Below are positions 2,285-18,203 of a stretch of DNA of 64,000 bases, piece by piece; positions within the stretch are counted from its first letter, which is position 1, and each line of letters opens with the position of its first letter. A program made the translations under genes and the position numbers. The notes beneath the pieces were generated by a model. That model saw only the letters and a list, made by a program, of their open reading frames with translations, did no database searches and was not told the origin of the DNA. Source of the stretch: Escherichia phage BME3. Location of the stretch: sequence record PP239276.1; one strand, written 5' to 3'.

Positions 2285-2316
2285 ACAAAAAAGGGCGCTT
2301 AGTGCGCCCCTTTCTT
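2285..2316. terminator. bidirectional hairpin terminator gggcgc-ttagt-gcgccc
   Basis: A-tract upstream and T-tract downstream; lies just after stop of 2327..2716 (-). Confidence 0.5.
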
Positions 2317-2326
2317 TTACCGTGTA

Positions 2327-2716
2327 TTAATATTCGTTATAATACATCGCTAACTTTTCATCAAAAGCCGCTTGACGATCTGCATACTCCCAAAACATTT
2401 CCTGATCCTGCTGGTCATCTTCATCCATCATGTTAAACTGTGCCACTTCCTGGTAAGTGATCGCCATATTATAACGATAGGTGATCTCTTCTGCGATGTT
2501 TTCCGGTAAAGATGATTCTACACTGTCTAACAGCATATTTAACATCATTTCAGCCGCTTTTTCATCATTATCAAAGCAGTAAGCAGACCATGCCGCATGA
2601 TGTTTATTTTTCATCTTTGCAATCAAGCCATTGACTAAAAAAGGCGCTACGTTGTTAACGATACCCTGCAAGGATTGGAATTTTTCAACGTTAGAAACAG
2701 AAACCAGGTTGCGCAT
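2327..2716 (-). CDS. hypothetical acidic early protein (129 aa)
   Basis: ORF track 2327..2776 trimmed to ATG at 2716 (MRNLVSV) downstream of leader hairpin; C-terminus rich in D/E. Confidence 0.6.
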   Translation of the reverse strand: MRNLVSVSNVEKFQSLQGIVNNVAPFLVNGLIAKMKNKHHAAWSAYCFDNDEKAAEMMLNMLLDSVESSLPENIAEEITYRYNMAITYQEVAQFNMMDEDDQQDQEMFWEYADRQAAFDEKLAMYYNEY

Positions 2717-2739
2717 AGTATTTACCTTTTTGATTACCT

Positions 2740-2800
2740 GGCGGGAAACCATTTCCCGCCCTATGTGGTAAATCATACCATATTGGGGATCGGTGTCAAT
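2740..2800 (-). promoter_or_regulatory. early promoter plus leader hairpin module
   Basis: TTGACA (2795-2800), 17 nt spacer, TATGAT (2772-2777), box ttaccacatagg, perfect hairpin ggcgggaaaccatttcccgcc (2740-2760). Confidence 0.6.
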
Positions 2801-2805
2801 ACTTT

Positions 2806-3192
2806 TTATTCAATATAAATCAAATTATCTTCACCAATGTAAGCATGCACCGATGGCATTAATTTAGCTGCATTTGTTAGGCGGTTGGCGGTGTTAGTAG
2901 TGTATATTTCAGGGCGATCCCAAAAACCTATGCCGTGACCGTTACGGGTGAAATGTAAGTCATTCCCGATCTGGTTTGCTGTAGCGCCGTCGCTCATTGC
3001 CTCAGAGATAGCGGCAACATTGGCACTACAAAAGGCGGTCACATCGCTGGTAATACGTTTCAGGGCGCTAGAAGAAAAATCATAATCGTCTAGATTCTCA
3101 ATATATTCCCCATTGTGATCCGTCGCTGGTTCGGCAAAAATAAAGGCTTCTTTATAGCCGTTGATCATTTCGTTAATGATTTCAGTTTTCAT
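2806..3192 (-). CDS. hypothetical early protein (128 aa)
   Basis: ORF track; start overlaps stop of upstream gene (ATGA). Confidence 0.6.
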   Translation of the reverse strand: MKTEIINEMINGYKEAFIFAEPATDHNGEYIENLDDYDFSSSALKRITSDVTAFCSANVAAISEAMSDGATANQIGNDLHFTRNGHGIGFWDRPEIYTTNTANRLTNAAKLMPSVHAYIGEDNLIYIE

Positions 3193-3413
3193 GCTGTACG
3201 CTCGACAATAATAATGGTTTGCGGGATCTCGTTTTCTACTACTAACAAGGCTTTTTTCTGTGTGATAGATATTTTAACACGTTGTAAAGTAGCGGTGAAA
3301 TCTTTCATTTCGTCACGTGGTGTTTTAGTGCAATGCCAGATCTCAGGTTTACCTATTTGCAAGCCGCGTAAAAATTCTGTTTTACCTGTCTTATTCGTGA
3401 TCACTTGTTTCAC
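3189..3413 (-). CDS. hypothetical small early protein (GTG start; alternative GTG at 3404)
   Basis: ORF track; translationally coupled to 2806..3192. Confidence 0.45.
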   Translation of the reverse strand: MKQVITNKTGKTEFLRGLQIGKPEIWHCTKTPRDEMKDFTATLQRVKISITQKKALLVVENEIPQTIIIVERTA

Positions 3414-3414
3414 C

Positions 3415-3519
3415 TTAGCCGATACCGTGGGAAGATAGAATCATGTTAGCCATAGTTGCAATCACTCCAACCGATAACGCCAGGCCCACTATTGCAACCG
3501 TGAAAATTTTCTCTAACAT
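3415..3519 (-). CDS. 34-aa hydrophobic peptide MLEKIFTVAIVGLALSVGVIATMANMILSSHGIG
   Basis: Hand-translated; below the 60-aa ORF-track cutoff; sits behind its own promoter/leader module. Confidence 0.35.
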   Translation of the reverse strand: MLEKIFTVAIVGLALSVGVIATMANMILSSHGIG

Positions 3520-3537
3520 GATGCTACCCTCATTAGT

Positions 3538-3600
3538 GGGCGTTGCCTTATTGCCCCGCCCTATGTGATACATATTATCAGCTTATTAGCCGTTGTCAAT
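3538..3600 (-). promoter_or_regulatory. early promoter plus degenerate leader hairpin
   Basis: TTGACA (3595-3600), TAATAT -10, box gtatcacataggg, hairpin gggcg...cgccc. Confidence 0.5.
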
Positions 3601-3704
3601 CACTTTTTTAAACTTCTTTCAAAGAGAAGATCATCGATCTCAGAAACAATAAGCGTTATCAAAGGAATAATAACCGCCGCGCACATCATGGTAAGAATAA
3701 TCAT
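3600..3704 (-). CDS. 34-aa hydrophobic peptide MIILTMMCAAVIIPLITLIVSEIDDLLFERSLKK
   Basis: Hand-translated; single predicted TM helix; downstream of module 3724-3782. Confidence 0.35.
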   Translation of the reverse strand: MIILTMMCAAVIIPLITLIVSEIDDLLFERSLKK

Positions 3705-3723
3705 TTTAGTTCTCTCTATTCTG

Positions 3724-3782
3724 GCGGGAAACCATTTCCCGCCCTATGTGGTACACTTTACCAGATAACCGCATATTGTCAA
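3724..3782 (-). promoter_or_regulatory. early promoter plus leader hairpin module
   Basis: TTGACA (3777-3782), TAAAGT (3755-3760), box gtaccacataggg, hairpin ggcgggaaaccatttcccgcc (3724-3744). Confidence 0.6.
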
Positions 3783-3783
3783 A

Positions 3784-4053
3784 CTATTTTTTCAAGCTCG
3801 ACCAGTCAAAACACGGGGCGATCTCGTTAAAACTTGTACCCTGTAAAGCACATAATTTTTTAGCAATAGCCGCCGTAACCTGGCGTTGTACGCGCGGATC
3901 TGCTACTGATTGGAGAAAATAGGCGGTTTTATACGTGATCATGCTTTCGCCCGTTTCTTTGTTAATATGATGCACTATTTTAGCTTTATCATCTTTCACC
4001 AGGGTGTAACCGGATTCGATGGCCTTGATTGCAACGTCCAATGATATTTTCAT
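3784..4053 (-). CDS. hypothetical early protein (89 aa)
   Basis: ORF track; leader hairpin ggcgggg-n7-ccccgcc (4074-4094) and RBS aagagg upstream. Confidence 0.6.
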   Translation of the reverse strand: MKISLDVAIKAIESGYTLVKDDKAKIVHHINKETGESMITYKTAYFLQSVADPRVQRQVTAAIAKKLCALQGTSFNEIAPCFDWSSLKK

Positions 4054-4101
4054 GATTTACCTCTTTATTGACGGCGGGGAATACTCCCCCCGCCTTATTA
4101 A

Positions 4102-4272
4102 TTACTCTTCATCGTCGCCGTTATAGTATTCAATGCCGTTTTCATCGGTTACAGTAATGTTAACGCCACCGATAGCAACACGATCACGGGCAAACGTCAT
4201 GGCTTCATTTAAATCTTCAGACCAAAAAATATTGTGACCTTTGCGCGATACGTAAAACATAGTTGGGATCAT
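4102..4272 (-). CDS. hypothetical early protein (56 aa)
   Basis: ORF track 4102..4302 trimmed to ATG at 4272 (MIPTMFYV) after leader hairpin. Confidence 0.5.
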   Translation of the reverse strand: MIPTMFYVSRKGHNIFWSEDLNEAMTFARDRVAIGGVNITVTDENGIEYYNGDDEE

Positions 4273-4293
4273 GATTTGTTTCTCTTCTGTTAT

Positions 4294-4351
4294 GAGCGGC
4301 ACTATTGCCGCCCTATGTGATAAACTTTACTACGTTGTTTGCCTAGTGTCA
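4294..4351 (-). promoter_or_regulatory. early promoter plus leader hairpin module
   Basis: TTGACA (4346-4351), TAAAGT (4324-4329), box ttatcacataggg, hairpin gcggca-atag-tgccgc. Confidence 0.6.
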
Positions 4352-4353
4352 AA

Positions 4354-4638
4354 TTATTTTTTAATGTTTTGCCCTACAAAATTAATCACTTCCTTAAGCT
4401 GTTTCTCAGTCATGATCGTGCCTGGCAATTCTTCTTTGATTTCTTCCGGTAGATAGATATTACCGCGCCAGGTTAATAAACAACCGTTTTGATCTTCACA
4501 GATAGAATAAGAGAAGATCCACTCATTATCATTCTCAAGCTCCCAAAAGCACAAAAAATCTTCTTTCCCCAGGTTTTCAACGGATAAGCATAATCCGCGA
4601 CGTGCTGCATAGTTGGAAAGTGCTTTTGTGATCTTCAT
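4354..4638 (-). CDS. hypothetical early protein (94 aa)
   Basis: ORF track; ATG at 4638 follows leader hairpin and promoter. Confidence 0.6.
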   Translation of the reverse strand: MKITKALSNYAARRGLCLSVENLGKEDFLCFWELENDNEWIFSYSICEDQNGCLLTWRGNIYLPEEIKEELPGTIMTEKQLKEVINFVGQNIKK

Positions 4639-4657
4639 ATCTTATCTCTTCTGTTAA

Positions 4658-4720
4658 GGCGGGGAAACCATTTCCCCGCTCTATGAGATACAATATACTC
4701 CTTATCAGGTGTGCTGTCAA
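4658..4720 (-). promoter_or_regulatory. early promoter plus leader hairpin module
   Basis: TTGACA (4715-4720), 17 nt, TATATT (4692-4697), box gtatctcatagag, hairpin cggggaaaccatttccccg. Confidence 0.6.
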
Positions 4721-5044
4721 TCAATAATCTTCAATATTTTCTACATTGACAAAAGCATGTTTATTTTCTAAGTTTTCGCCGTACCATTGCCCCATGTTGA
4801 TTTCTGCGGTGCGTAACCAGGACATGCCGCGTTCTATCTTTTTGCTCGCAATGTCGATCCGGCTTTTGCATAGTGCTTTAGCTTGCAATGTAAAAACATT
4901 ATTGCCATGTAATGCTTCCAGGTCATCATGTGCAAGGCGATACTCTTTAAAGCCTGATTCTATCATTTCAATCGCATCAAGGAAACGAGCGCGATGATAG
5001 AAAAAATCAGAGTTATCCAAATAAACACCGATCACAGATTTCAT
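4721..5044 (-). CDS. hypothetical early protein (107 aa)
   Basis: ORF track 4721..5104 trimmed to ATG at 5044 (MKSVIG) with RBS aaaaggg. Confidence 0.55.
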   Translation of the reverse strand: MKSVIGVYLDNSDFFYHRARFLDAIEMIESGFKEYRLAHDDLEALHGNNVFTLQAKALCKSRIDIASKKIERGMSWLRTAEINMGQWYGENLENKHAFVNVENIEDY

Positions 5045-5144
5045 AATTTTACCCTTTTGTTTGCGGCCTTTGCCGTTTTCAAGATATAGTTTAAAGCATA
5101 ACAAAAAATTGTCAAGCCTTTAAAGCGTACAACTATAAAACCTA

Positions 5145-5264
5145 TTAAAACACAATGCATAACAACATGGTTATAGTAGCAATACAACATAAAGCCATGC
5201 TTGTTTTCCTTCCTTCCTCGTATGCTGGATTTATTACGCTATATTGTACGGGAATAATTTTCAT
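5145..5264 (-). CDS. possible 39-aa peptide
   Basis: Hand-translated ORF with RBS aagga; weak support. Confidence 0.25.
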   Translation of the reverse strand: MKIIPVQYSVINPAYEEGRKTSMALCCIATITMLLCIVF

Positions 5265-5273
5265 GCTGTTTCC

Positions 5274-5369
5274 TTAATGTCTTAAAACGTGGTTTACAAT
5301 AGAAACAAGTATACAGAAGAAAAAAGATCCTGACAATAAGATCCCGAAAAATAAATGTAAATAGGGCAT
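5274..5369 (-). CDS. 31-aa hydrophobic peptide MPYLHLFFGILLSGSFFFCILVSIVNHVLRH
   Basis: Strong RBS aaggag 7 nt upstream of ATG; hand-translated. Confidence 0.35.
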   Translation of the reverse strand: MPYLHLFFGILLSGSFFFCILVSIVNHVLRH

Positions 5370-5373
5370 GGTT

Positions 5374-5676
5374 TTACTCCTTAAAAAAATCATTGACAAT
5401 TAAACTGATAACGCCCAGCACCAGATCACCAGGTAGCGCCGCGCTTTCGTTGTTGCTTGTTTGCACTTCCTCACTAGTACCAGCATGATAGATCGCATGG
5501 TAAGCAATAGTATAATAACCTTTCGTTATTTCTTTAAGATTAATGATTAGCACGTTATTTGTTTCATCTTGAAACAATTTAGCGGTGATAGTATTGTTTT
5601 CTTTTACACTATCGACTTTTATTGATGGATCATTTACACCAGAAAAAAGAAAAAACGTTTTAGCTATGCCGTTCAT
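5374..5676 (-). CDS. hypothetical early protein (100 aa)
   Basis: ORF track; RBS aaaggaga; promoter upstream. Confidence 0.6.
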   Translation of the reverse strand: MNGIAKTFFLFSGVNDPSIKVDSVKENNTITAKLFQDETNNVLIINLKEITKGYYTIAYHAIYHAGTSEEVQTSNNESAALPGDLVLGVISLIVNDFFKE

Positions 5677-5688
5677 GTAGTTCTCCTT

Positions 5689-5717
5689 TGTTGTGTGTAT
5701 CTTATAACGTGCTTTCT
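5689..5717 (-). promoter_or_regulatory. sigma70-like early promoter (TTGACA-17-TAAGAT)
   Basis: -35 at 5712-5717, -10 at 5689-5694; no leader hairpin. Confidence 0.5.
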
Positions 5718-5723
5718 ATGTTG

Positions 5724-6125
5724 TCAATCTTTTATTTCGGTGCATTTTGCTAGGGTATACGTTGCAAGTGCTGCCACTAGTTTTTCATTGCTACGATCTG
5801 CGGCTGTACTGTGTACTTTTTGAATACTTTTTAACCACGGTGTAAAATTTTGAGTAGTCAGCACACTAGTAATAATTTCACATGGTACATCTTCATTTAA
5901 GCCATTAACAATAGATTTATCTATTTTTGCCGTTAGTTGTGTAACAGCACCATAAGCGATCATGTGTGAATCCTCCATGATTTCATCGGGGATCGCATTA
6001 TTAATAAGCATGACGTTTTCCATTGCATCAACGGCGCTTAATTCTGCTACTGTGGAGGATATCGCCGCGCTAGATGTTCCAACCATGCCAAAAGAGATTA
6101 AACCAGCGATCAATAATTTTTTCAT
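5724..6125 (-). CDS. secreted early protein (134 aa)
   Basis: ORF track trimmed to MKKLLIAGLISFGMVGTSSAA signal-peptide-like N-terminus. Confidence 0.6.
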   Translation of the reverse strand: MKKLLIAGLISFGMVGTSSAAISSTVAELSAVDAMENVMLINNAIPDEIMEDSHMIAYGAVTQLTAKIDKSIVNGLNEDVPCEIITSVLTTQNFTPWLKSIQKVHSTAADRSNEKLVAALATYTLAKCTEIKD

Positions 6126-6133
6126 TTCTTGCC

Positions 6134-6316
6134 TCATATATGTTTTATTGAGATTATATTGTCACTATATACAACGTTTTTCAACGTGTCAATAAAAATC
6201 TTATTGCCTTCAATCCCCAGGATCACGCCGCTAGTTATAAAGCCATATTGATCACGATATCGGGCGCATAACCTTTGCCCCTGGGCTAGTGCCTTGCTTA
6301 TTTCGTCTAATTTCAT
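6134..6316 (-). CDS. hypothetical small protein (60 aa)
   Basis: ORF track; RBS acaggag. Confidence 0.45.
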   Translation of the reverse strand: MKLDEISKALAQGQRLCARYRDQYGFITSGVILGIEGNKIFIDTLKNVVYSDNIISIKHI

Positions 6317-6406
6317 TTTTAAAGCTCCTGTAAAGCTGTCTAACGTGGTTTATAGGCTTATCCTGGCGTTACCATTGCCTATGGGTAACAAGCCTCTATA
6401 TAAGCT

Positions 6407-6433
6407 AAAAGGGCGCTTATTGCGCCCTTTTTT
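6407..6433. terminator. bidirectional hairpin terminator gggcgc-ttat-tgcgccc
   Basis: Flanked by A-tract and T-tract. Confidence 0.5.
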
Positions 6434-6434
6434 G

Positions 6435-6572
6435 TTATTCGTTCCAGTATCTTTTTGTGCTGCGATCTCTTTTTGTTTTGTTCCGCTTGTCGCCTTTTTT
6501 GGTGATCTCTTCGTTCCAATCTTTACGCGCTTTGTTGCGGTTGAATTTTTCGATCTGCTGTGATGCGTTCAT
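6435..6572 (-). CDS. possible 45-aa basic protein
   Basis: Hand-translated (MNASQQIEKFNRNKARKDW...); RBS agagga; ends at terminator. Confidence 0.35.
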   Translation of the reverse strand: MNASQQIEKFNRNKARKDWNEEITKKGDKRNKTKRDRSTKRYWNE

Positions 6573-6587
6573 GTTTCTTCCTCTTAA

Positions 6588-6947
6588 TTACGCCACGTTG
6601 TGCTGTTTTGCCAGGGTTACGATCATGCTTGCAATATATAACCAATAATTTTCCCGCTCACGGGTAACGGTTGTTTCTTTGCTTGTTTCTTTTATGTACT
6701 TCCATTCAATTAATAATTGATCGATCTCGTTATAATTAAAAGCTATATTTATTTCTGACGGTAAACCTTGTAACCAGCTTTTAACAGCTTGTACCATGTT
6801 GTTATTATAACGATCACGATTAGATTGATACCAGTATTCAGAATTAAAACGGCGCATCAGTTCGGTGATTTTTTCTTTTTCGGTTGTAGTACCATCAAAA
6901 GAAATAGCCGACAAAATGTAAGTTTTAATTGCTTTTGCTGATTTCAT
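6588..6947 (-). CDS. hypothetical early protein (119 aa)
   Basis: ORF track; preceded by module 6969-7026. Confidence 0.6.
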   Translation of the reverse strand: MKSAKAIKTYILSAISFDGTTTEKEKITELMRRFNSEYWYQSNRDRYNNNMVQAVKSWLQGLPSEINIAFNYNEIDQLLIEWKYIKETSKETTVTRERENYWLYIASMIVTLAKQHNVA

Positions 6948-6968
6948 AATCTTATCTCTTTATTGATG

Positions 6969-7026
6969 GCGGGAAACCATTTCCCGCCGTTGTTGTCACT
7001 TTACTTATAAATGATGCTACTGTCAA
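6969..7026 (-). promoter_or_regulatory. early promoter plus leader hairpin module
   Basis: TTGACA (7021-7026), 17 nt, TAAAGT (6998-7003), hairpin ggcgggaaaccatttcccgcc (6969-6989). Confidence 0.6.
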
Positions 7027-7033
7027 GCGAATA

Positions 7034-7204
7034 TTATTTATTTTTTAGCGTTAACGTTCCCAGCTTATCAGCGTGACGCAGACCAGGGAAGATCCATTTA
7101 CCTGATTCATCTTTTACCGGGGCTTTAAGCGTAGCGCCCAGGTTGGCGGCGTTAACTTTACGTGCAACGTTGCGAGCGGCTTCACGGGTAGCGAAAGTGA
7201 TCAT
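7034..7204 (-). CDS. possible 56-aa protein
   Basis: Hand-translated; leader hairpin ggcggtgg-n-ccaccgcc and TTGCAA-17-TAAACT promoter upstream. Confidence 0.4.
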   Translation of the reverse strand: MITFATREAARNVARKVNAANLGATLKAPVKDESGKWIFPGLRHADKLGTLTLKNK

Positions 7205-7295
7205 GATGTTTTCCTCTTCTCTTTGTTAGGCGGTGGGCTATTCCACCGCCTTGATGAATACAGTTTACTTTATTTTTGCAGTATTGCAAGCGGTT

Positions 7296-7511
7296 TTATG
7301 AAATAAATGTCAAAGTAAAATCATAATCTTTTGATAGTTTATATTGCACCTTGTTACCGTATATGTCACCTTTACGTAAAGATCCACGGATACCGATAAC
7401 ATCTTTCACATCTTTAAGATTTTTCACGCCTGTAATATCTTTATTAAAATATTCGTCATCTGAAAATAAAACTTGCTTTGCATTTTTTAACAAGGTGCGG
7501 ATATTAGCCAT
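7296..7511 (-). CDS. hypothetical early protein (71 aa)
   Basis: ORF track 7296..7559 trimmed to ATG at 7511 (MANIRTLL). Confidence 0.55.
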   Translation of the reverse strand: MANIRTLLKNAKQVLFSDDEYFNKDITGVKNLKDVKDVIGIRGSLRKGDIYGNKVQYKLSKDYDFTLTFIS

Positions 7512-7532
7512 GATGATTTCTCTTTTAGTTGT

Positions 7533-7590
7533 GAGCGGCACTATTGCCGCCCTATGCATTACATTTTACTGATTTTAGTTATCTTGTCAA
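7533..7590 (-). promoter_or_regulatory. early promoter plus leader hairpin module
   Basis: TTGACA (7585-7590); hairpin family gagcggcactattgccgccc (also at 4294 and 11175). Confidence 0.55.
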
Positions 7591-7598
7591 GATTATTT

Positions 7599-7826
7599 TT
7601 AGTTTAATCCATCCAGGCACAACAAGCGATCAACATTCAGATCGGTTAGGCTAATCGTTGGCACCTGGTAGGATTCGATGTACTCAACGCTCGACCATTG
7701 CCCAAAGTTAGCGACCGCCCAGCTATTCAAGGAGGAGTGAAGATCATCCCCTTTCTTCTCGGTGATAACTGCTACTACCTGGGAGATTCCAACCGTACCG
7801 GATACGCGAACAATAACGATAGCCAT
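7599..7826 (-). CDS. hypothetical early protein (75 aa)
   Basis: ORF track. Confidence 0.55.
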   Translation of the reverse strand: MAIVIVRVSGTVGISQVVAVITEKKGDDLHSSLNSWAVANFGQWSSVEYIESYQVPTISLTDLNVDRLLCLDGLN

Positions 7827-7848
7827 AATTATAACCTTTCTTTGATTT

Positions 7849-7908
7849 GGCGGGAAACCATTTCCCGCCTTATGTGATATATCTTACACTAATTTAAAAC
7901 GTTGTCAA
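7849..7908 (-). promoter_or_regulatory. early promoter plus leader hairpin module
   Basis: TTGACA (7903-7908), TAAGAT, box atatcacataagg, hairpin ggcgggaaaccatttcccgcc (7849-7869). Confidence 0.6.
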
Positions 7909-8003
7909 ATTATTTTCTATTTCTTCCGTAATAGCCCAATTTATGATCTAAGCTAAAACGTTTTGTGAGATAGGTCGAACGATGTTTCATTTTTATGTCT
8001 CCT

Positions 8004-8243
8004 TTACATTCCAACCATAGCGGCACGGATCGCGGTTTTACTGAACTTGAATCCGTCTGGCGTTTTATCTTGATCCATACTTTCAAGAAATAACATCATA
8101 TCCCGCGCTGCGTCATTTTTATTGGTGTTAGCTGCGATAAATTCACGCGCAAGATTATAAAAACCTTCATCGTTGTTGATCCAAAGGCTTACATTCCAAT
8201 GAGTTTTATTTTTGTGACCGTTGTACATTTTAGATTTAGCCAT
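8004..8243 (-). CDS. hypothetical early protein (79 aa)
   Basis: ORF track 8004..8300 trimmed to ATG at 8243 (MAKSKMY) after leader hairpin. Confidence 0.55.
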   Translation of the reverse strand: MAKSKMYNGHKNKTHWNVSLWINNDEGFYNLAREFIAANTNKNDAARDMMLFLESMDQDKTPDGFKFSKTAIRAAMVGM

Positions 8244-8264
8244 GATGTTAATCTCTTTTTCAGT

Positions 8265-8326
8265 GAGGCGGGAACTATTCCCGCTCTCGATGTAAACCAT
8301 TATATAGTAATAAAATACTTTGTCAA
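8265..8326 (-). promoter_or_regulatory. early promoter plus leader hairpin module
   Basis: TTGACA (8321-8326), 16 nt, TATAAT; hairpin gcgggaa-cta-ttcccgc. Confidence 0.6.
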
Positions 8327-8328
8327 TA

Positions 8329-8511
8329 TTATTTTTTGGAAAGTTTACGCATTAATTCTACGCTTTCTTGTGAACGTTTCGCTACCTGGCAAGCTGCATG
8401 GGTAGTGAACATTTTTGTATAGTCTGACGGTTTGCCACCGAACTTAGCGGCACGTTCACGGGCACTTGGAACTAATACTATTTCTTTCTTACAGATAGTG
8501 CATTTAGCCAT
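8329..8511 (-). CDS. hypothetical small protein (60 aa)
   Basis: ORF track. Confidence 0.5.
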   Translation of the reverse strand: MAKCTICKKEIVLVPSARERAAKFGGKPSDYTKMFTTHAACQVAKRSQESVELMRKLSKK

Positions 8512-8530
8512 TTTTATTTCTCTCTTTGTT

Positions 8531-8593
8531 AGGAGGGGAAACCGTTCCCCGTCCTGATGTGATACAGTTTACTCTTTTTATTCGTGCTGTCAA
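8531..8593 (-). promoter_or_regulatory. early promoter plus leader hairpin module
   Basis: TTGACA (8588-8593), TAAACT; hairpin ggggaaaccgttcccc. Confidence 0.55.
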
Positions 8594-8599
8594 TACTTT

Positions 8600-8965
8600 T
8601 TATAAATCTTTTTTACGTTTTACATCGCTTGCATGACTGTATACAGTGATCCCATTGTCACGGCAAAAACGGGAAAGATAAGCATAATTTGAAAACTCTT
8701 TACCTTCCAGGTTGATAACCTTGCTAAACTCTTCCAGGGCGACGGTATCAAAATGATCACCATAACCATATTGAAACGGAACGTTAACGACTTCAATCAG
8801 TTTACCGCCGATCTCAACGTCAACCATCAAAGAGAAATAAGTATTACCATAAGACTTTTGAAACCAGCGACGGGCGCTAATATGTACCGCTTCAATGCTG
8901 GATAGTTCAATTTTAGCAGTGTTAGCCAGGGTAGCATAAGCAGAAACATTGATATTTTTAGCCAT
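8600..8965 (-). CDS. hypothetical early protein (121 aa)
   Basis: ORF track. Confidence 0.6.
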   Translation of the reverse strand: MAKNINVSAYATLANTAKIELSSIEAVHISARRWFQKSYGNTYFSLMVDVEIGGKLIEVVNVPFQYGYGDHFDTVALEEFSKVINLEGKEFSNYAYLSRFCRDNGITVYSHASDVKRKKDL

Positions 8966-9012
8966 AGTCTTTAATCTCTTTTGATTAGTTAGGAGTATTC
9001 CCGATAAAAGTT

Positions 9013-9041
9013 ATTATGCTTGTACTATCGTTCGTTGTCAA
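9013..9041 (-). promoter_or_regulatory. sigma70-like early promoter (TTGACA-17-CATAAT)
   Basis: -35 at 9036-9041, -10 at 9013-9018. Confidence 0.45.
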
Positions 9042-9060
9042 TAGCACAAGACTAAAACTT

Positions 9061-9240
9061 TTAACGATAATCATCATATGCTTTATTGACCTGGCGAATA
9101 TAGCTTTCAAAAGCTAGATCAATAGATTTATATTCACGGATATAATCACCATAGGAAACCACATACATTTCTATAGCTTCCTCATATGCCAGGATGATAG
9201 AATCTAAACCTACGATCTCAGTCTTTGCAATAATAGCCAT
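9061..9240 (-). CDS. possible 59-aa protein
   Basis: Hand-translated (MAIIAKTEIVGLDSIILAYEE...); RBS aaggaa; TTGACA-16-TATAAT promoter at about 9268-9295. Confidence 0.4.
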   Translation of the reverse strand: MAIIAKTEIVGLDSIILAYEEAIEMYVVSYGDYIREYKSIDLAFESYIRQVNKAYDDYR

Positions 9241-9387
9241 GCTTTTATTCCTTAGTAATGTTTCAATCTATATAAGCATTATAGCTTACTGATTTCAGGT
9301 GTCAAGTGATTTTTTATTTCACTTTATGGGGGCGTTGCCCCGCTCTATGTGGTATATATTACGGGGCTTGTTTGCATATGTCAAGCC

Positions 9388-9942
9388 TTACACAATGCAA
9401 TTTTCATAATTTTCTAAGGCTTGTCTTTTTTCCTCTTCCGTTGGCATGTATGGCTGGATCTCTTCCTCTTCCAGGGTAGACATGATTTCTTCCTCTTCCT
9501 CCTGGTCGCCCTGGTCTTCCTCTTGCGCTATGGTAACAAGTTTATTGATCTTCTCCTGGGCTTTAATCAATTTTGCATCTAGCACCATTTTAGCGGTGTT
9601 GTATACCGTCCATGCCATGCGCTTTTCTTCGTATGCCTTATCTAGTGCGGCTAATTTAGCGGGATACTCTTCCAACACCTTAAAAGCCGGATCAATGCTG
9701 TATAAGGGATTATTTTTAGCGTCATCGCTTGGATCTGCGGCGCTTGCAATGTCAGCGTTACCATTCGCCAGCCATCCAGGGCGAACGGATCGTGTCCTGG
9801 TGTTGCCGTTGCTCTTTGCCGCTCGATTTCCTATCTGCTCCCCGCTATACCCTACCATGTGATCGATCATGTCATCTGGTATTATGCGCGGATCATTAGC
9901 ATCATGCTTTACCCAGGACTGGATCACATATTCACGCCCCAT
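9388..9942 (-). CDS. hypothetical early protein with poly-acidic C-terminal region (184 aa)
   Basis: ORF track; EEDQGDQEEEEEIMSTLEEEE stretch. Confidence 0.6.
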   Translation of the reverse strand: MGREYVIQSWVKHDANDPRIIPDDMIDHMVGYSGEQIGNRAAKSNGNTRTRSVRPGWLANGNADIASAADPSDDAKNNPLYSIDPAFKVLEEYPAKLAALDKAYEEKRMAWTVYNTAKMVLDAKLIKAQEKINKLVTIAQEEDQGDQEEEEEIMSTLEEEEIQPYMPTEEEKRQALENYENCIV

Positions 9943-9943
9943 G

Positions 9944-10204
9944 TTAGTTCGCCTCTTCTGTTAGTAGTTTACATACCTTAAACATGCTTGCCGCGTCTTT
10001 TGACGGTAGCCAGCCTATGCGATACACTCCAGGGCCTGGGTTAGTTATATCCGTTAATTGAGCGTTACGATGATTAAAGATAGTGTAACCGCCGCCAGCA
10101 CGGGGATAAACATTATCTTTAAACCTGATAGCGTATCTCGCCAGGTCGAACGTTGTAGCATGTTCAAAAGCGATCACATTATCAAAAACTTTTAGAAAAA
10201 ACAA
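9944..10204 (-). CDS. hypothetical early protein (86 aa, TTG start)
   Basis: ORF track; start codon reads TTG with strong RBS ggagga 5 nt upstream. Confidence 0.5.
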   Translation of the reverse strand: MFFLKVFDNVIAFEHATTFDLARYAIRFKDNVYPRAGGGYTIFNHRNAQLTDITNPGPGVYRIGWLPSKDAASMFKVCKLLTEEAN

Positions 10205-10221
10205 GATTATCCTCCCCAGCG

Positions 10222-10353
10222 TTTAAAGCCCGTTGCACGGTTGTTTTTTAGCTCTCGTTTTAGTCTCTTGCAACGGTTTACAAGTGCAAACCGTGCCGGA
10301 GTCGTAACAGTAGCGCCGTTTTTGGTATGAATACTCATTACATATTGTTTCAT
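10222..10353 (-). CDS. possible 43-aa basic Cys-rich peptide
   Basis: Hand-translated (MKQYVMSIHTKKRRYCYDSGTVCTCKPLQETKTRAKKQPCNGL); follows module 10372-10425. Confidence 0.3.
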
Positions 10354-10371
10354 AAAGTTTTATCCTATGTA

Positions 10372-10425
10372 AGCGGGAACTATTCCCGCTTTAAGATAGC
10401 TTATCAGGTTTTAGTGCAATGTCAA
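10372..10425 (-). promoter_or_regulatory. early promoter plus leader hairpin module
   Basis: TTGACA (10420-10425), 16 nt, TAAGCT; hairpin agcgggaa-ctat-tcccgct. Confidence 0.5.
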
Positions 10426-10431
10426 CCGTTT

Positions 10432-10794
10432 TTATTCGTAAATTTTACCGCTTTCTACCCATACCATAACACGGCGCATGTTATCCCATGCATCTTGTCG
10501 CAGATTTAAGGCATGCAATTCTTCCGTGGTGCTCATGCCTGGCACGGGCTTGCTATATGTTACAAAAAGATCGCCAGCATATTCATAAGCCAGAGTAAGA
10601 TCACATTGAATCATCTTTTTAATCATAGCATTAAGCATCATATTAGCGGCATGTTGATCACGTTTTAGCGGTAGCGTTGCGATCTGTGAGCGATAGCTTT
10701 CGATACGTGCATCCACTGCATCACGCGAAAGATTTTTCACGTCATCGCGGAAAGATACCAGGTTAAACATTATAGTATTGATTTGCTTGCTCAT
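10432..10794 (-). CDS. hypothetical early protein (120 aa)
   Basis: ORF track. Confidence 0.6.
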   Translation of the reverse strand: MSKQINTIMFNLVSFRDDVKNLSRDAVDARIESYRSQIATLPLKRDQHAANMMLNAMIKKMIQCDLTLAYEYAGDLFVTYSKPVPGMSTTEELHALNLRQDAWDNMRRVMVWVESGKIYE

Positions 10795-10817
10795 TGTGTT
10801 ACCCTTTCTTTGATTTG

Positions 10818-10876
10818 GCGGGAAACCATTTCCCGCCTTATGTGGTATATATTACTAAATTATTTTTCAGTGTCAA
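10818..10876 (-). promoter_or_regulatory. early promoter plus leader hairpin module
   Basis: TTGACA (10871-10876); box ataccacataagg; hairpin ggcgggaaaccatttcccgcc (10818-10838). Confidence 0.6.
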
Positions 10877-10879
10877 GTC

Positions 10880-11152
10880 TTAAAGCAAAAACGCTACATC
10901 TTTCGCTTTTAGTGTAGTGTCAATCATGTTCGGGCTTTTATAATCCACAAAGCGCGCGGTTTTTTCAATAGCGAAACCGAGATAATCTTGCTTATTGAAG
11001 TTACATTCTTTTTTAAATGTTTCCCGTGCCACTGTGATCGCTGCGTCCAGGGATAAACGCCCGTCAATGTTGATGTTAGCGAAAGATCCGCCACCGCGCA
11101 TAGGTTTACCAGTGATACCCATTACGATCATTGATGCGCTATATGATGCCAT
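10880..11152 (-). CDS. hypothetical early protein (90 aa)
   Basis: ORF track. Confidence 0.6.
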   Translation of the reverse strand: MASYSASMIVMGITGKPMRGGGSFANINIDGRLSLDAAITVARETFKKECNFNKQDYLGFAIEKTARFVDYKSPNMIDTTLKAKDVAFLL

Positions 11153-15634: not shown

Positions 15635-15808
15635 TTACCTTTTAAGGAAACCAATCATAATGAAGAACCACATCCATGCAGGAGAGATAATAAAGCCAAA
15701 GAAACCGCAAATAACCGCTTTCTTAATCTCTTCCAGACAACCCACCAGGAAAAGAACGAGTGAGACTACAATCCAGATAGCCATAAACACTGTAACAAAG
15801 AAACTCAT
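15635..15808 (-). CDS. possible 57-aa membrane peptide
   Basis: Hand-translated (MSFFVTVFMAIWIVVSLVLFLVGC...); RBS gggagaaagg. Confidence 0.35.
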   Translation of the reverse strand: MSFFVTVFMAIWIVVSLVLFLVGCLEEIKKAVICGFFGFIISPAWMWFFIMIGFLKR

Positions 15809-18056: not shown

Positions 18057-18203
18057 ATGTTATTCTTTAGACTTAATATTGCTTTCTGTTTGTTTGCAAA
18101 CATTGCATTCTGGGTATTAGGTAGTGTAAAATTAGGCTACTTCTTTACTGTACTGCAAGCTATTTGTTTAGCTGGTCAAATAATCACTAAGGGGCGAGTA
18201 TGA
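18057..18203 (+). CDS. possible 48-aa membrane peptide
   Basis: Hand-translated (MLFFRLNIAFCLFANIAFWVLGSV...); TAA-ATG and ATGA coupling to neighbours. Confidence 0.4.
   Translation: MLFFRLNIAFCLFANIAFWVLGSVKLGYFFTVLQAICLAGQIITKGRV

Follow-up and report, generated by a model that had tools for sequence, protein, structure and literature searches.

Predicted one-helix membrane micro-protein genes in a small-gene block of a phi92-like Escherichia coli phage

The window (the whole stretch of 64,000 nucleotides that was analysed) is DNA of a phi92-like E. coli myovirus of the genus Justusliebigvirus. Our best joint reading of a group of very small ORFs in it, to which we assign a probability of about 0.6, is that they are genuine genes for one-helix membrane peptides, carried on cassettes that resemble the PeSL units of T4-type phages, and that the peptides act as accessory inner-membrane factors. 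Sequence comparison firmly points to p1, p2 and p7 being genuine translated phage genes: their ORFs are unbroken, purifying selection acts on the stated frame, and all three are members of PHROG families common to other phage groups. The fourth ORF, p3, is probably a genuine translated gene as well, and the four predicted peptides, each with one helix, span 31-39 residues. In relatives these genes are already listed as "hypothetical" or "membrane" proteins.

A sequence-only reading of this DNA had placed small ORFs at 3415..3519 and 3600..3704 (34 aa each) and at 5274..5369 (31 aa). These coordinates are correct, and all three ORFs lie on the minus strand. The features discussed below are the following:

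3189..3404, minus strand: 71-aa gene (phrog_5988), the AAGGTG Shine-Dalgarno (SD) sequence of which overlaps the p1 stop codon
3415..3519, minus strand: p1, gene for a predicted 34-aa single-pass membrane micro-protein (phrog_14631; rV5 gp168 / FV3_00160 family)
3538..3561, minus strand: GC-rich leader hairpin of p1 (-16.8 kcal/mol, z -3.3), part of the repeated CACATAGGGCGG module
3572..3599, minus strand: sigma-70-type promoter of the p1 operon, TTGACA-16-TAATAT with a TG extended -10
3600..3704, minus strand: p2, gene for a predicted 34-aa membrane micro-protein (phrog_7482), the sole ORF of its promoter-hairpin cassette
3723..3743, minus strand: leader hairpin of p2, GGGCGGGAAATGGTTTCCCGCC (-15.4 kcal/mol, z -4.3)
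3755..3782, minus strand: promoter of p2, TTGACA-16-TAAAGT with a TG extended -10
5145..5264, minus strand: p7, gene for a predicted 39-aa, C-terminally anchored membrane micro-protein (phrog_10979, "membrane protein")
5274..5369, minus strand: p3, probable gene for a 31-aa membrane micro-protein, Justusliebigvirus only, between the Phi92_gp240 homologue and p7
5374..5676, minus strand: 100-aa Phi92_gp240 homologue (phrog_10737), first gene of the gp240-p3-p7 transcription unit
5699..5727, minus strand: sigma-70-type promoter of the gp240-p3-p7 unit, TTGACA-17-TAAGAT
15635..15808, minus strand: Phi92_gp219, 57 aa with two hydrophobic segments (phrog_22950; already annotated)
18057..18203, plus strand: Phi92_gp211, 48-aa hydrophobic protein (phrog_27111; already annotated)

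Membrane character and conservation of the peptides

The hydrophobic one-helix character that had been proposed for p1, p2 and p3 was borne out by KD19, the Kyte-Doolittle mean over a 19-residue window. All three reach at least 2.37 (p1 exactly 2.37). The window contains 347 six-frame ORFs of 30-60 aa, of which only about 3-8% attain this level. Together with p7 they cover a KD19 range of 2.31-2.83 and have a negative summed Hessa free energy; each has one transmembrane-like hydrophobic segment of about 17-25 residues. Since an open frame of at least 31 codons follows 32% of all ATGs in the window (the genome has 38% GC), an open hydrophobic ORF is not significant in itself, and 22% of the six-frame ORFs of 30-60 aa have a KD19 of at least 1.6; p1 and p2 stand above chance because they are strongly conserved. 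In this genome a strong SD followed by an ATG is a very good predictor of a gene: the window has 24 AAGGAG-N5-9-ATG sites, and 21 of them begin an ORF of 30 codons or more. The ribosome-binding sites earlier read off the sequence were all recovered, i.e. GAGGG for p1 (7 nt ahead of the ATG), a weak GAGAGA for p2 and AAGGAG for p3, again 7 nt ahead of the ATG.

The comparative work was based on GenBank phage records, as scans of IMG/VR and JGI metagenome contigs, anchored on the flanking genes, yielded only a handful of close relatives. The peptide p1 (MLEKIFTVAIVGLALSVGVIATMANMILSSHGIG) is encoded by the first cistron of an operon that continues with the 71-aa gene and a 128-aa gene. By tblastn it was found at full length in 228 phage records of Justusliebigvirus, Phapecoctavirus and the Vequintavirinae, with 50-97% identity and a query coverage of 80% or more in every record. 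The length is 34 aa at every distinct matching locus (25 rows, 16 distinct ORF sequences), also where the upstream DNA is unrelated (rV5-type context), and the phrog_14631 HMM matches p1 over profile positions 1-34 of 34 (E 7.7e-22). The pN/pS ratio is 0.34 in frame versus 0.88 and 2.15 off-frame, with a third-position excess of changes. The C-terminus ATM(A/S)NMILS(S/F)(H/N)GIG is conserved with A24S, S30F and H31N as the only substitutions, and its invariant positions carry synonymous codon changes. The conserved block, ATMxNMILSSxGIG, is contiguous and is predicted to span the tail together with the helix in its outer half, where an Asn would be embedded in the membrane; a periodicity test gave no pattern of conservation on one helical face. 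The N-terminal Lys residues suggest an N-in/C-out topology. A 52-aa version of p1 starting from the ATG at 3573 was rejected, as this ATG lies within the -10 element of the promoter (TAATAT), has no SD and yields an extension that is not conserved.

The distribution of p2 (MIILTMMCAAVIIPLITLIVSEIDDLLFERSLKK) is of another kind. It is present in about 10 genomes of the genus and 100% identical in 10 Justusliebigvirus records, and homologues are found across unrelated phage subfamilies, namely in Mooglevirus ESh21, in Avunavirus (Av-05_0034) and in Seuratvirus (Seurat gp69, SD04 and VogelGryff). The core IL.MM..V..P...L.VSE(I/V).D is common to p2 and these homologues, four genera in all. The phrog_7482 HMM matches p2 at E 6.5e-10 (profile positions 7-39 of 46), and pN/pS is 0.48 in frame versus about 1 off-frame. 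Conservation peaks at a periodicity of 100 degrees (permutation p about 0.009, with about 4 independent lineages). In p2 one helical face and the juxtamembrane SEIDD motif thus seem to be kept, which suggests helix-helix packing, and the basic C-terminal tails of the homologues would place the peptide N-out/C-in. When 1.84 billion representatives were searched exhaustively with p2 by phmmer, the only hit was p2 itself, a single 34-aa query being too weak. No DNA match to 3400..3780 was found in complete E. coli genomes, so that at this sensitivity there is no host or prophage copy.

The ORF of p3 (MPYLHLFFGILLSGSFFFCILVSIVNHVLRH) starts 4 nt past the stop of the 100-aa Phi92_gp240 homologue, its stop overlaps the SD of p7, and the ORF thus fills the gap between the two genes exactly; its initiation region is predicted to be unstructured. 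It is intact in 19 of 19 loci, identity among the 55 records being 95.9% or higher throughout. The five variable sites (two synonymous, three conservative, i.e. S/T, I/M and R/K) represent too little divergence for a selection test. A homologue outside the genus was not found, and Pfam and PHROG hold no family for it (best phrog_14968, E 0.38). In Phapecoctavirus the p3 slot is occupied by a promoter module, not by an ORF. Conservation in related phages, the lack of which had been named as part of what would refute the proposed genes, is clear for p1 and p2, whereas for p3 it extends within the genus only.

The micro-gene p7 (5264..5145) was missed by the sequence-only reading and is better supported. 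With tblastn it was matched in 166 phage records, among them those of 52-kb Salmonella Rosemountvirus phages, where it is annotated as "membrane protein", and is matched by the phrog_10979 HMM over profile positions 6-39 of 39 (E 2e-9). Its length is 39-41 aa across three phage groups, it is deleted in ZCKP1, and its pN/pS is 0.48 in frame, the off-frame values for p1, p2 and p7 ranging from 0.88 to 2.15 and all three showing the third-position excess. Invariant are V6, Y8, V10, N12-P13-A14 and E17-G18 (VxYxVxNPAxxEG), with several codons varying synonymously. It is this soluble motif that is conserved and not the helix, which is probably just an anchor; p7 may thus be described as a C-terminal anchor that carries an N-terminal motif of 22 residues. 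In their build the three conserved peptides look different, with a block and tail in p1, a helical face in p2 and a soluble motif in p7.

We do not accept as a gene another ORF of this region, p6 (5190..5041, 49 aa): it overlaps the 3' end of p7 and a promoter at 5115..5088, it has no PHROG, and in L003, L055 and L068 an insertion of 1 nt breaks its frame. It is annotated in AMO3598 and JohannJBalmer. The "similar peptides" reported at 15635..15808 and 18057..18203 turned out to be Phi92_gp219 and Phi92_gp211, which have two hydrophobic segments each and are unrelated in sequence to p1-p3.

Promoter-hairpin cassettes

The units of the small-gene block are driven by sigma-70-type promoters, in agreement with the initial reading. 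The suggestion that the small ORFs often have their own promoter and leader module holds for p1 and p2, both with a TTGACA promoter and a leader hairpin, and does not hold for p3, which has no promoter of its own. The TTGACA hexamers are perfect, several promoters having an extended -10. The CACATAGGGCGG motif occurs in 10 copies in the window (nine on the minus strand) versus 1.6 expected, and nine minus-strand promoter and hairpin modules lie within 2799-10876, in which the hairpin GGGCGGGAAATGGTTTCCCGCC recurs. The hairpins have no T-run, and in one record they are annotated as terminators; the initiation regions are open beside these stable hairpins. No Rfam covariance model matched 2700..5800 at E <=1.

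Gene order may reflect a gain and loss of whole units. It is p1, p2, a 195-nt gene and a 270-nt gene in AMO3598, p1, p2 and the 270-nt gene in the window, p1, a 225-nt gene and the 270-nt gene in alia, and p1 and the 270-nt gene in ukendt; p2 and the 195/225-nt gene are hence present or absent as entire cassettes among these four. A precedent is provided by the PeSL (promoter-early stem-loop) cassettes of T4-type phages (PMC2839356), which likewise combine a repeated consensus sigma-70 promoter, an AT-rich upstream region, a stem-loop with a G-run and a C-run, an SD and a small ORFan, and which also cluster in a plastic region where whole units differ between close relatives. In contrast to the PeSLs described by Arbiol et al. 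(2010) and Comeau et al. (2014), the lineage here is Stephanstirmvirinae/Vequintavirinae and not Tevenvirinae, and the hairpin is always downstream of the -10, an arrangement that corresponds to one of the five PeSL subclasses. The cassettes suggest that PeSL-like modular shuffling may take place outside the T4 group too.

Possible roles and alternative explanations

Homology gives no direct lead to function, and none of the results favours host division, transport or cell-envelope defence, the targets named in the sequence-only reading. In Pfam-A and NCBIfam no match at E <=1 was obtained for any peptide, be it to a holin, toxin, lysis or superinfection-exclusion family or to another characterised protein, and the PHROG function labels are empty. 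The nine neighbouring genes belong to PHROGs of unknown function or to none, with sub-threshold Pfam noise only, and for the 128-aa and 71-aa genes every homologue is labelled "hypothetical". The AlphaFold model of the 128-aa protein is confident (pLDDT 88.9) and had no match among PDB folds (best E 1.1); for the 71-aa protein the confidence of the model is low (pLDDT 67). A signal peptide is predicted for Phi92_gp239, which lies just upstream, and this provides an envelope context. A transcriptome or ribosome-profiling study of these phage genera was not found in the literature.

Our best guess, by analogy, is that the peptides are accessory inner-membrane host-interaction factors. The micro-genes lie in a hyperplastic small-gene block, the units of which each combine a consensus sigma-70 promoter with a GC-rich stem-loop, an SD and a small ORF and are probably gained and lost as a whole between relatives, in the manner of T4-type PeSLs. 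Host RNA polymerase would transcribe the micro-genes early, and the peptides would insert into the inner membrane, where, as dispensable factors, they might associate with an inner-membrane protein of the host (or of the phage) and alter its activity, resulting for instance in superinfection exclusion or in the block of a membrane-associated defence or transport function. The bacterial regulators AcrZ, MgrB, MgtS, SgrT and KdpF, as well as the phage exclusion proteins T4 Imm and Sp and HK97 gp15, have 30-100 residues and one or two helices and exert their effect through binding to a larger inner-membrane protein. The AcrZ/MgrB-type regulators, T4 Imm/Sp and HK97 gp15 share no sequence similarity with p1-p3 or p7, so the comparison is one of analogy only. 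A more specific proposal, which we put forward tentatively and consider somewhat doubtful, is that p1, p2 and p7 represent three mechanistically distinct families, each of which would neutralise a specific host inner-membrane target, perhaps the DNA-entry route of rival phages or a membrane-bound defence or abortive-infection effector, with p1 near-core in more than 220 rV5/phi92-like phages and p2 mobile between unrelated coliphage subfamilies on its self-contained cassette.

The peptides could instead damage the membrane, oligomerising to depolarise or permeabilise the inner membrane for host shut-off, as type I toxins, holins and single-gene lysis proteins do. Their size, single helix and motifs of small or polar residues (for p1 the Gly/Ser/Ala spacing and Asn25, for p3 Gly/Ser) would fit self-association, and strong promoters precede the genes. 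We nevertheless regard such a role as unlikely: Pfam, NCBIfam and the PHROGs gave no holin, toxin or lysis family, the accessory block lies far from any lysis cassette, p7 conserves its soluble part instead of its helix, and a depolarising peptide made early and strongly would presumably be a disadvantage to a 145-kb phage, which depends on an energised host. A function as leader or upstream ORFs, in which translation of p1 (and p3) would couple ribosomes to the 71-aa gene or p7 and the peptide itself would be unimportant, seems very unlikely to us. The gene arrangement is compatible with it, as the TAA stop of p1 sits within the AAGGTG SD of the GTG-initiated 71-aa gene, the pair is syntenic in Justusliebigvirus, Phapecoctavirus and Vequintavirus, and p3 runs into the SD of p7. 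However, the p1 peptide is itself under selection, as its C-terminal block is kept while the codons of invariant residues vary synonymously, and the pair is broken both in UPEC06, where p1 has no 71-aa gene behind it, and in L052, where the 71-aa gene occurs without p1. Moreover, coupling does not need a transmembrane helix, and the p2 cassette has no downstream partner.

Finally, the ORFs, mainly p3, might be chance products of T-rich regulatory DNA that yield no functional peptide. For p1, p2 and p7 this is excluded by the frame-specific purifying selection and the conservation across genera and families. For p3, the abundance of open and hydrophobic frames given above would agree with it, as would a promoter-like TTGTCA-17-TATACT inside the ORF (5336..5308, 10/12 match), the absence of homologues outside the genus and of a PHROG, and the promoter and hairpin in the same slot of ukendt; the neighbouring annotated p6, with its promoter overlap and broken frame, is such an artefact. 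Against it stand the optimal AAGGAG-N7-ATG, of a type that nearly always starts an ORF in the window, the exact fit from just past one stop to the SD of the next gene, and amino-acid changes that are all conservative. On balance we consider a chance origin quite improbable, and retain the reading of all four as genes for accessory inner-membrane peptides. If these indeed bind defined host membrane proteins, they would be very small and easy to synthesise, and could serve to probe or inhibit envelope functions of E. coli. A well-defined candidate is p1, with 34 residues, a nearly invariant 14-residue block and a presence in more than 200 therapeutic-type coliphages.

Annotation in relatives

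The description of the small ORFs as unannotated proved wrong in general. The p1 homologue rV5 gp168/ORF173 was listed in 2013 as "membrane protein, 1 TMD" on the basis of TMHMM/Phobius (PMC3606486 Table S3), and p1 is annotated in rV5, FV3_00160, UPEC06, AMO3598 and many others. Likewise, p2 is annotated in ETEC-TG, pEC-M2929-1AR.1 and AMO3598, and p3 in the BASEL phages PaulScherrer and JohannJBalmer (bas60_0131, bas62_0126), while p7 homologues are labelled "membrane protein" by RefSeq and Pharokka. The micro-genes are missing from the phi92 reference and from about half of the records; p1, p3 and p7 are the ones omitted in about half of the public genomes, while the spurious overlapping p6 is annotated in some. 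The practical yield is this annotation point.

The closest families differ from the window genes in several respects. The rV5 gp168 / FV3_00160 proteins share with p1 the 34-residue core, the ATM(A/S)NMILSS(H/N)GIG C-terminus and the position ahead of the 71-aa gene, but in rV5 a longer 46-aa start is annotated, the N-terminal half of the rV5 type reads MKQKLIDA... versus MLEKIFTV... in the window, and no promoter and hairpin module precedes the gene. The phrog_7482 members (Seurat gp69, Av-05_0034 and ESh21 URY12627) have in common with p2 a helix at the N-terminus, with Pro in its centre, and an acidic juxtamembrane motif. The shortest member is p2 (34 aa versus 39-61 aa), which does not have the long basic tail seen in Seuratvirus and has its own promoter cassette in the window. 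The phrog_10979 members (phAPEC8_004, ukendt_73 and Rosemountvirus SPLA11_25) resemble p7 in length, in the VxYxVxNPAxxEG motif and in the C-terminal hydrophobic anchor, with only 42-50% identity and a PHROG label that is a prediction. In Phapecoctavirus p7 has its own promoter module, whereas in the window it follows p3.

Hydrophobic small ORFs of the early block

Positions 3000..5800 share 93-98% identity with some 50 E. coli myoviruses of Justusliebigvirus, a phi92-like genus of the Stephanstirmvirinae, with partial matches to Phapecoctavirus and Vequintavirinae, and the genes run on the minus strand throughout from about 2300 to 11000. The three hydrophobic micro-protein ORFs of the sequence-only reading (p1, p2 and p3) lie where that reading had placed them, all on the minus strand, and its observation is confirmed, and it is extended by a fourth, p7 (MKIIPVQYSVINPAYEEGRKTSMALCCIATITMLLCIVF), absent from its list.

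3519..3415, minus strand: p1, 34 aa
3704..3600, minus strand: p2, 34 aa
5369..5274, minus strand: p3, 31 aa
5264..5145, minus strand: p7, 39 aa, C-terminally anchored membrane micro-gene (phrog_10979) directly 3' of p3
5190..5041, minus strand: p6, 49-aa ORF, CDS in AMO3598 and JohannJBalmer (bas62_0127)
2806..3192, minus strand: 128-aa protein, third gene of the p1 operon (phrog_1915)
15635..15808: Phi92_gp219, already annotated, own PHROG, two hydrophobic segments
18057..18203: Phi92_gp211, already annotated, own PHROG, two hydrophobic segments

A hydrophobic segment that fits the predicted helix is present in p1, p2 and p3, each with a mean Kyte-Doolittle value over 19 residues of at least 2.37. 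Of the 347 ORFs of this size class (six frames, 30-60 aa) in the window, they thus rank in roughly the top 3-8%. Since 32% of the ATGs in the window open at least 31 codons, openness and hydrophobicity are weak evidence alone, and the case therefore depends on comparison with relatives. The interpretation was right in part. All three ORFs have a Shine-Dalgarno sequence (SD) of their own, but the promoter and hairpin leader belong to p1 and p2 only, p3 following the gp240 gene. "Unannotated" holds for only part of the records, the phi92 reference among them; elsewhere the genes are already listed as hypothetical or membrane proteins. The two further "similar peptides" proved to be the annotated Phi92_gp219 and Phi92_gp211.

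Coding status of p1, p2, p7 and p3

By tblastn, p1 was found in 228 phage records (50-97% identity, at least 80% query coverage in all 228), including rV5, FV3, phAPEC8-like and phi92-like phages. Among 16 distinct nucleotide versions the variable sites at codon positions 1, 2 and 3 number 17, 9 and 23, and pN/pS is 0.34 in frame versus 0.88 and 2.15 off-frame. A C-terminal block, ATM(A/S)NMILS(S/F)(H/N)GIG, is nearly invariant, with synonymous changes inside it at codons 22, 25, 27, 28, 33 and 34. In rV5-type phages the upstream DNA is unrelated and the N-terminal half different (MKQKLIDA...), with length and hydrophobicity retained. With phrog_14631 the match is full-length (E 7.7e-22). The peptide is annotated as FV3_00160, as rV5 gp168/ORF173, listed as "membrane protein, 1 TMD" in the 2013 rV5 paper (PMC3606486), and as a CDS in UPEC06 and AMO3598. 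A 52-aa version given by an ORF finder was rejected: its start falls in the -10 hexamer of the promoter and the extension is not conserved. Both N-terminal types occur within Vequintavirus, MLEKIFTV... in FV3 (L047) and the other in rV5 (L060); the downstream 71-aa gene is still 90-93% identical between them, and there seems to be a mosaic junction within the 34-codon gene (codons 1-19 against 20-34).

In 10 Justusliebigvirus records p2 is present with 100% identity; the remaining records of the genus lack it. It matches phrog_7482 (E 6.5e-10). Alignments with annotated proteins, from Mooglevirus ESh21 (39 aa), Avunavirus (Av-05_0034, 45 aa) and Seuratvirus (Seurat gp69/SD04/VogelGryff, 52-61 aa), show the common core IL.MM..V..P...L.VSE(I/V).D. 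In-frame pN/pS is 0.48, compared with about 1 in the other frames. Along the helix, conservation is strongest at a periodicity of 100 degrees (index 2.75, permutation p ~0.009, with only about four independent lineages), which indicates that one helix face is conserved. The longer homologues carry basic tails, which point to an N-out/C-in topology.

The p7 gene occurs in 166 phage records, including Phapecoctavirus (ukendt_73, phAPEC8_004) and 52-kb Rosemountvirus phages of Salmonella, in which the gene carries the annotation "membrane protein". It matches phrog_10979 with E 2e-9. Residues V6, Y8, V10, N12-P13-A14 and E17-G18 (VxYxVxNPAxxEG) are invariant, several of their codons varying synonymously; the C-terminal helix varies freely. 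In Klebsiella phage ZCKP1 p7 has been lost by deletion and is therefore dispensable. The ORF p6 is probably spurious: it overlaps the 3' end of p7 and a promoter (5115..5088), has no PHROG, and is frameshifted by a 1-nt insertion at ~5102 in three loci (L003, L055, L068).

That the ORFs arose by chance is viable only for p3, which is restricted to Justusliebigvirus (in the 55 records that carry the region, identity is never below 95.9%) and was assigned no family in a PHROG profile search. Against coding count a 10/12 promoter match inside it and the promoter-hairpin module that fills the equivalent slot in Phapecoctavirus. On the other side, its ATG follows AAGGAG at the optimal spacing of 7 nt, lies 4 nt past the stop of the Phi92_gp240 homologue and has an unstructured initiation region; of the 24 AAGGAG-type start sites in the window, 21 lead into ORFs of 30 codons or more, and 18 of those ORFs have at least 60. 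The ORF fills the gap between two genes exactly, is annotated in BASEL phages (bas60_0131, bas62_0126) and pEC-M2929-1AR.1, and is intact in 19 loci; variation there (two synonymous and three conservative changes, S13T, I20M and R30K) is consistent with coding, although five sites carry no statistical power. On balance we consider p3 rather likely to be a gene. In a collection of proteins clustered at 90% identity, the p3 variants (31 aa) fall together with unrelated 100-aa Phi92_gp240 homologues; this is an artefact, which could mask p3 in family-based surveys.

Promoter-hairpin cassettes

Nine minus-strand modules were identified between 2756 and 10876, with TTGACA at 10876, 9384, 7908, 7590, 4720, 4352, 3782, 3599 and 2799. 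Each consists of an AT-rich stretch, TTGACA-16/17-TAnnnT, a CACATAGGGCGG...CCGCC hairpin, an SD and an ATG, and the hairpin GGGCGGGAAATGGTTTCCCGCC recurs unchanged in several of them. The promoters of p1 (3599..3572) and p2 (3782..3755) have a perfect TTGACA and a TG-extended -10, followed by stable GC hairpins (-16.8 kcal/mol, z -3.3, and -15.4 kcal/mol, z -4.3, respectively) and an SD. No Rfam family matched in 2700..5800.

The layout of promoter, stem-loop and small ORF fits the PeSL cassettes of T4-type phages, although BME3 belongs to a non-T4 lineage. Those cassettes combine a consensus early promoter with a poly-G/poly-C stem-loop, are concentrated in hyperplastic regions and mediate modular shuffling of small ORFans (PMC2839356; PMC4122927). 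The unit of p2 measures 183 nt from one TTGACA to the next and contains no other ORF. The gene order is p1, p2, 195-nt, 270-nt in AMO3598, p1, p2, 270-nt in the window, p1, 225-nt, 270-nt in alia and p1, 270-nt in ukendt, so whole cassettes appear to have been gained or lost; close relatives differ by p2 and by the 195/225-nt gene. For the corresponding part of rV5, "88 mainly small ORFs" were described, and 33 sigma-70-type promoters were reported for that phage (PMC3606486).

4073..4094: GC hairpin GGCGGGGAATACTCCCCCCGCC between the 56-aa and 89-aa genes, without adjacent promoter; terminator-like score on the plus strand
7910..7990, minus strand: 26-aa basic ORF MKHRSTYLTKRFSLDHKLGYYGRNRK with AAGGAG SD, immediately 5' of the promoter at 7908

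The latter may be a further micro-gene. Other gap-filling small ORFs, not hydrophobic, lie at 10353..10207 (48 aa) and 9240..9061 (59 aa).

Possible function of the micro-proteins

Pfam and NCBIfam searches gave no matches to the peptides, library searches assigned them no function, and library and homologue searches gave none for any neighbouring gene. A literature search for transcriptome or translation studies of these phage genera turned up none. The 128-aa protein has a confident, mostly helical AlphaFold model (pLDDT 88.9, pTM 0.83) without a match among PDB folds (best E 1.1); many unrelated IMG/VR contigs carry homologues of it (31-40% identity). The sole contextual clue, a hint of envelope flavour, is the predicted signal peptide of Phi92_gp239, encoded just upstream of gp240, p3 and p7. 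The model was therefore built on peptide design and analogy.

In the best-supported model the peptides would be early-expressed, dispensable micro-proteins of the inner membrane, each binding a larger membrane protein through a different surface: for p2 one helical face and the SEIDD motif, for p1 the outer helix half and tail, including a membrane-embedded Asn, and for p7 the anchored soluble motif. One rival is that the ORFs are leaders serving for coupling only. The 71-aa gene (phrog_5988; 3189..3404, minus strand) does have the p1 stop inside its SD, and it forms a syntenic pair with p1 in three genera; the pair is separable, UPEC06 and L052 each carrying one without the other. A second rival is non-specific membrane damage by the peptides. 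All in all, they are reasonable candidates for functional work, above all p1 and p2.

Some matching records (MG0656xx, OR584014, OP562383, PP583539) are labelled as Campylobacter, Pseudomonas, Acinetobacter or Listeria phages, and their DNA or peptide matches are typical of E. coli/Salmonella phages; these host labels look doubtful. One example is the pair A145 and A150, labelled "Campylobacter" phages, with about 94% identity to this region.
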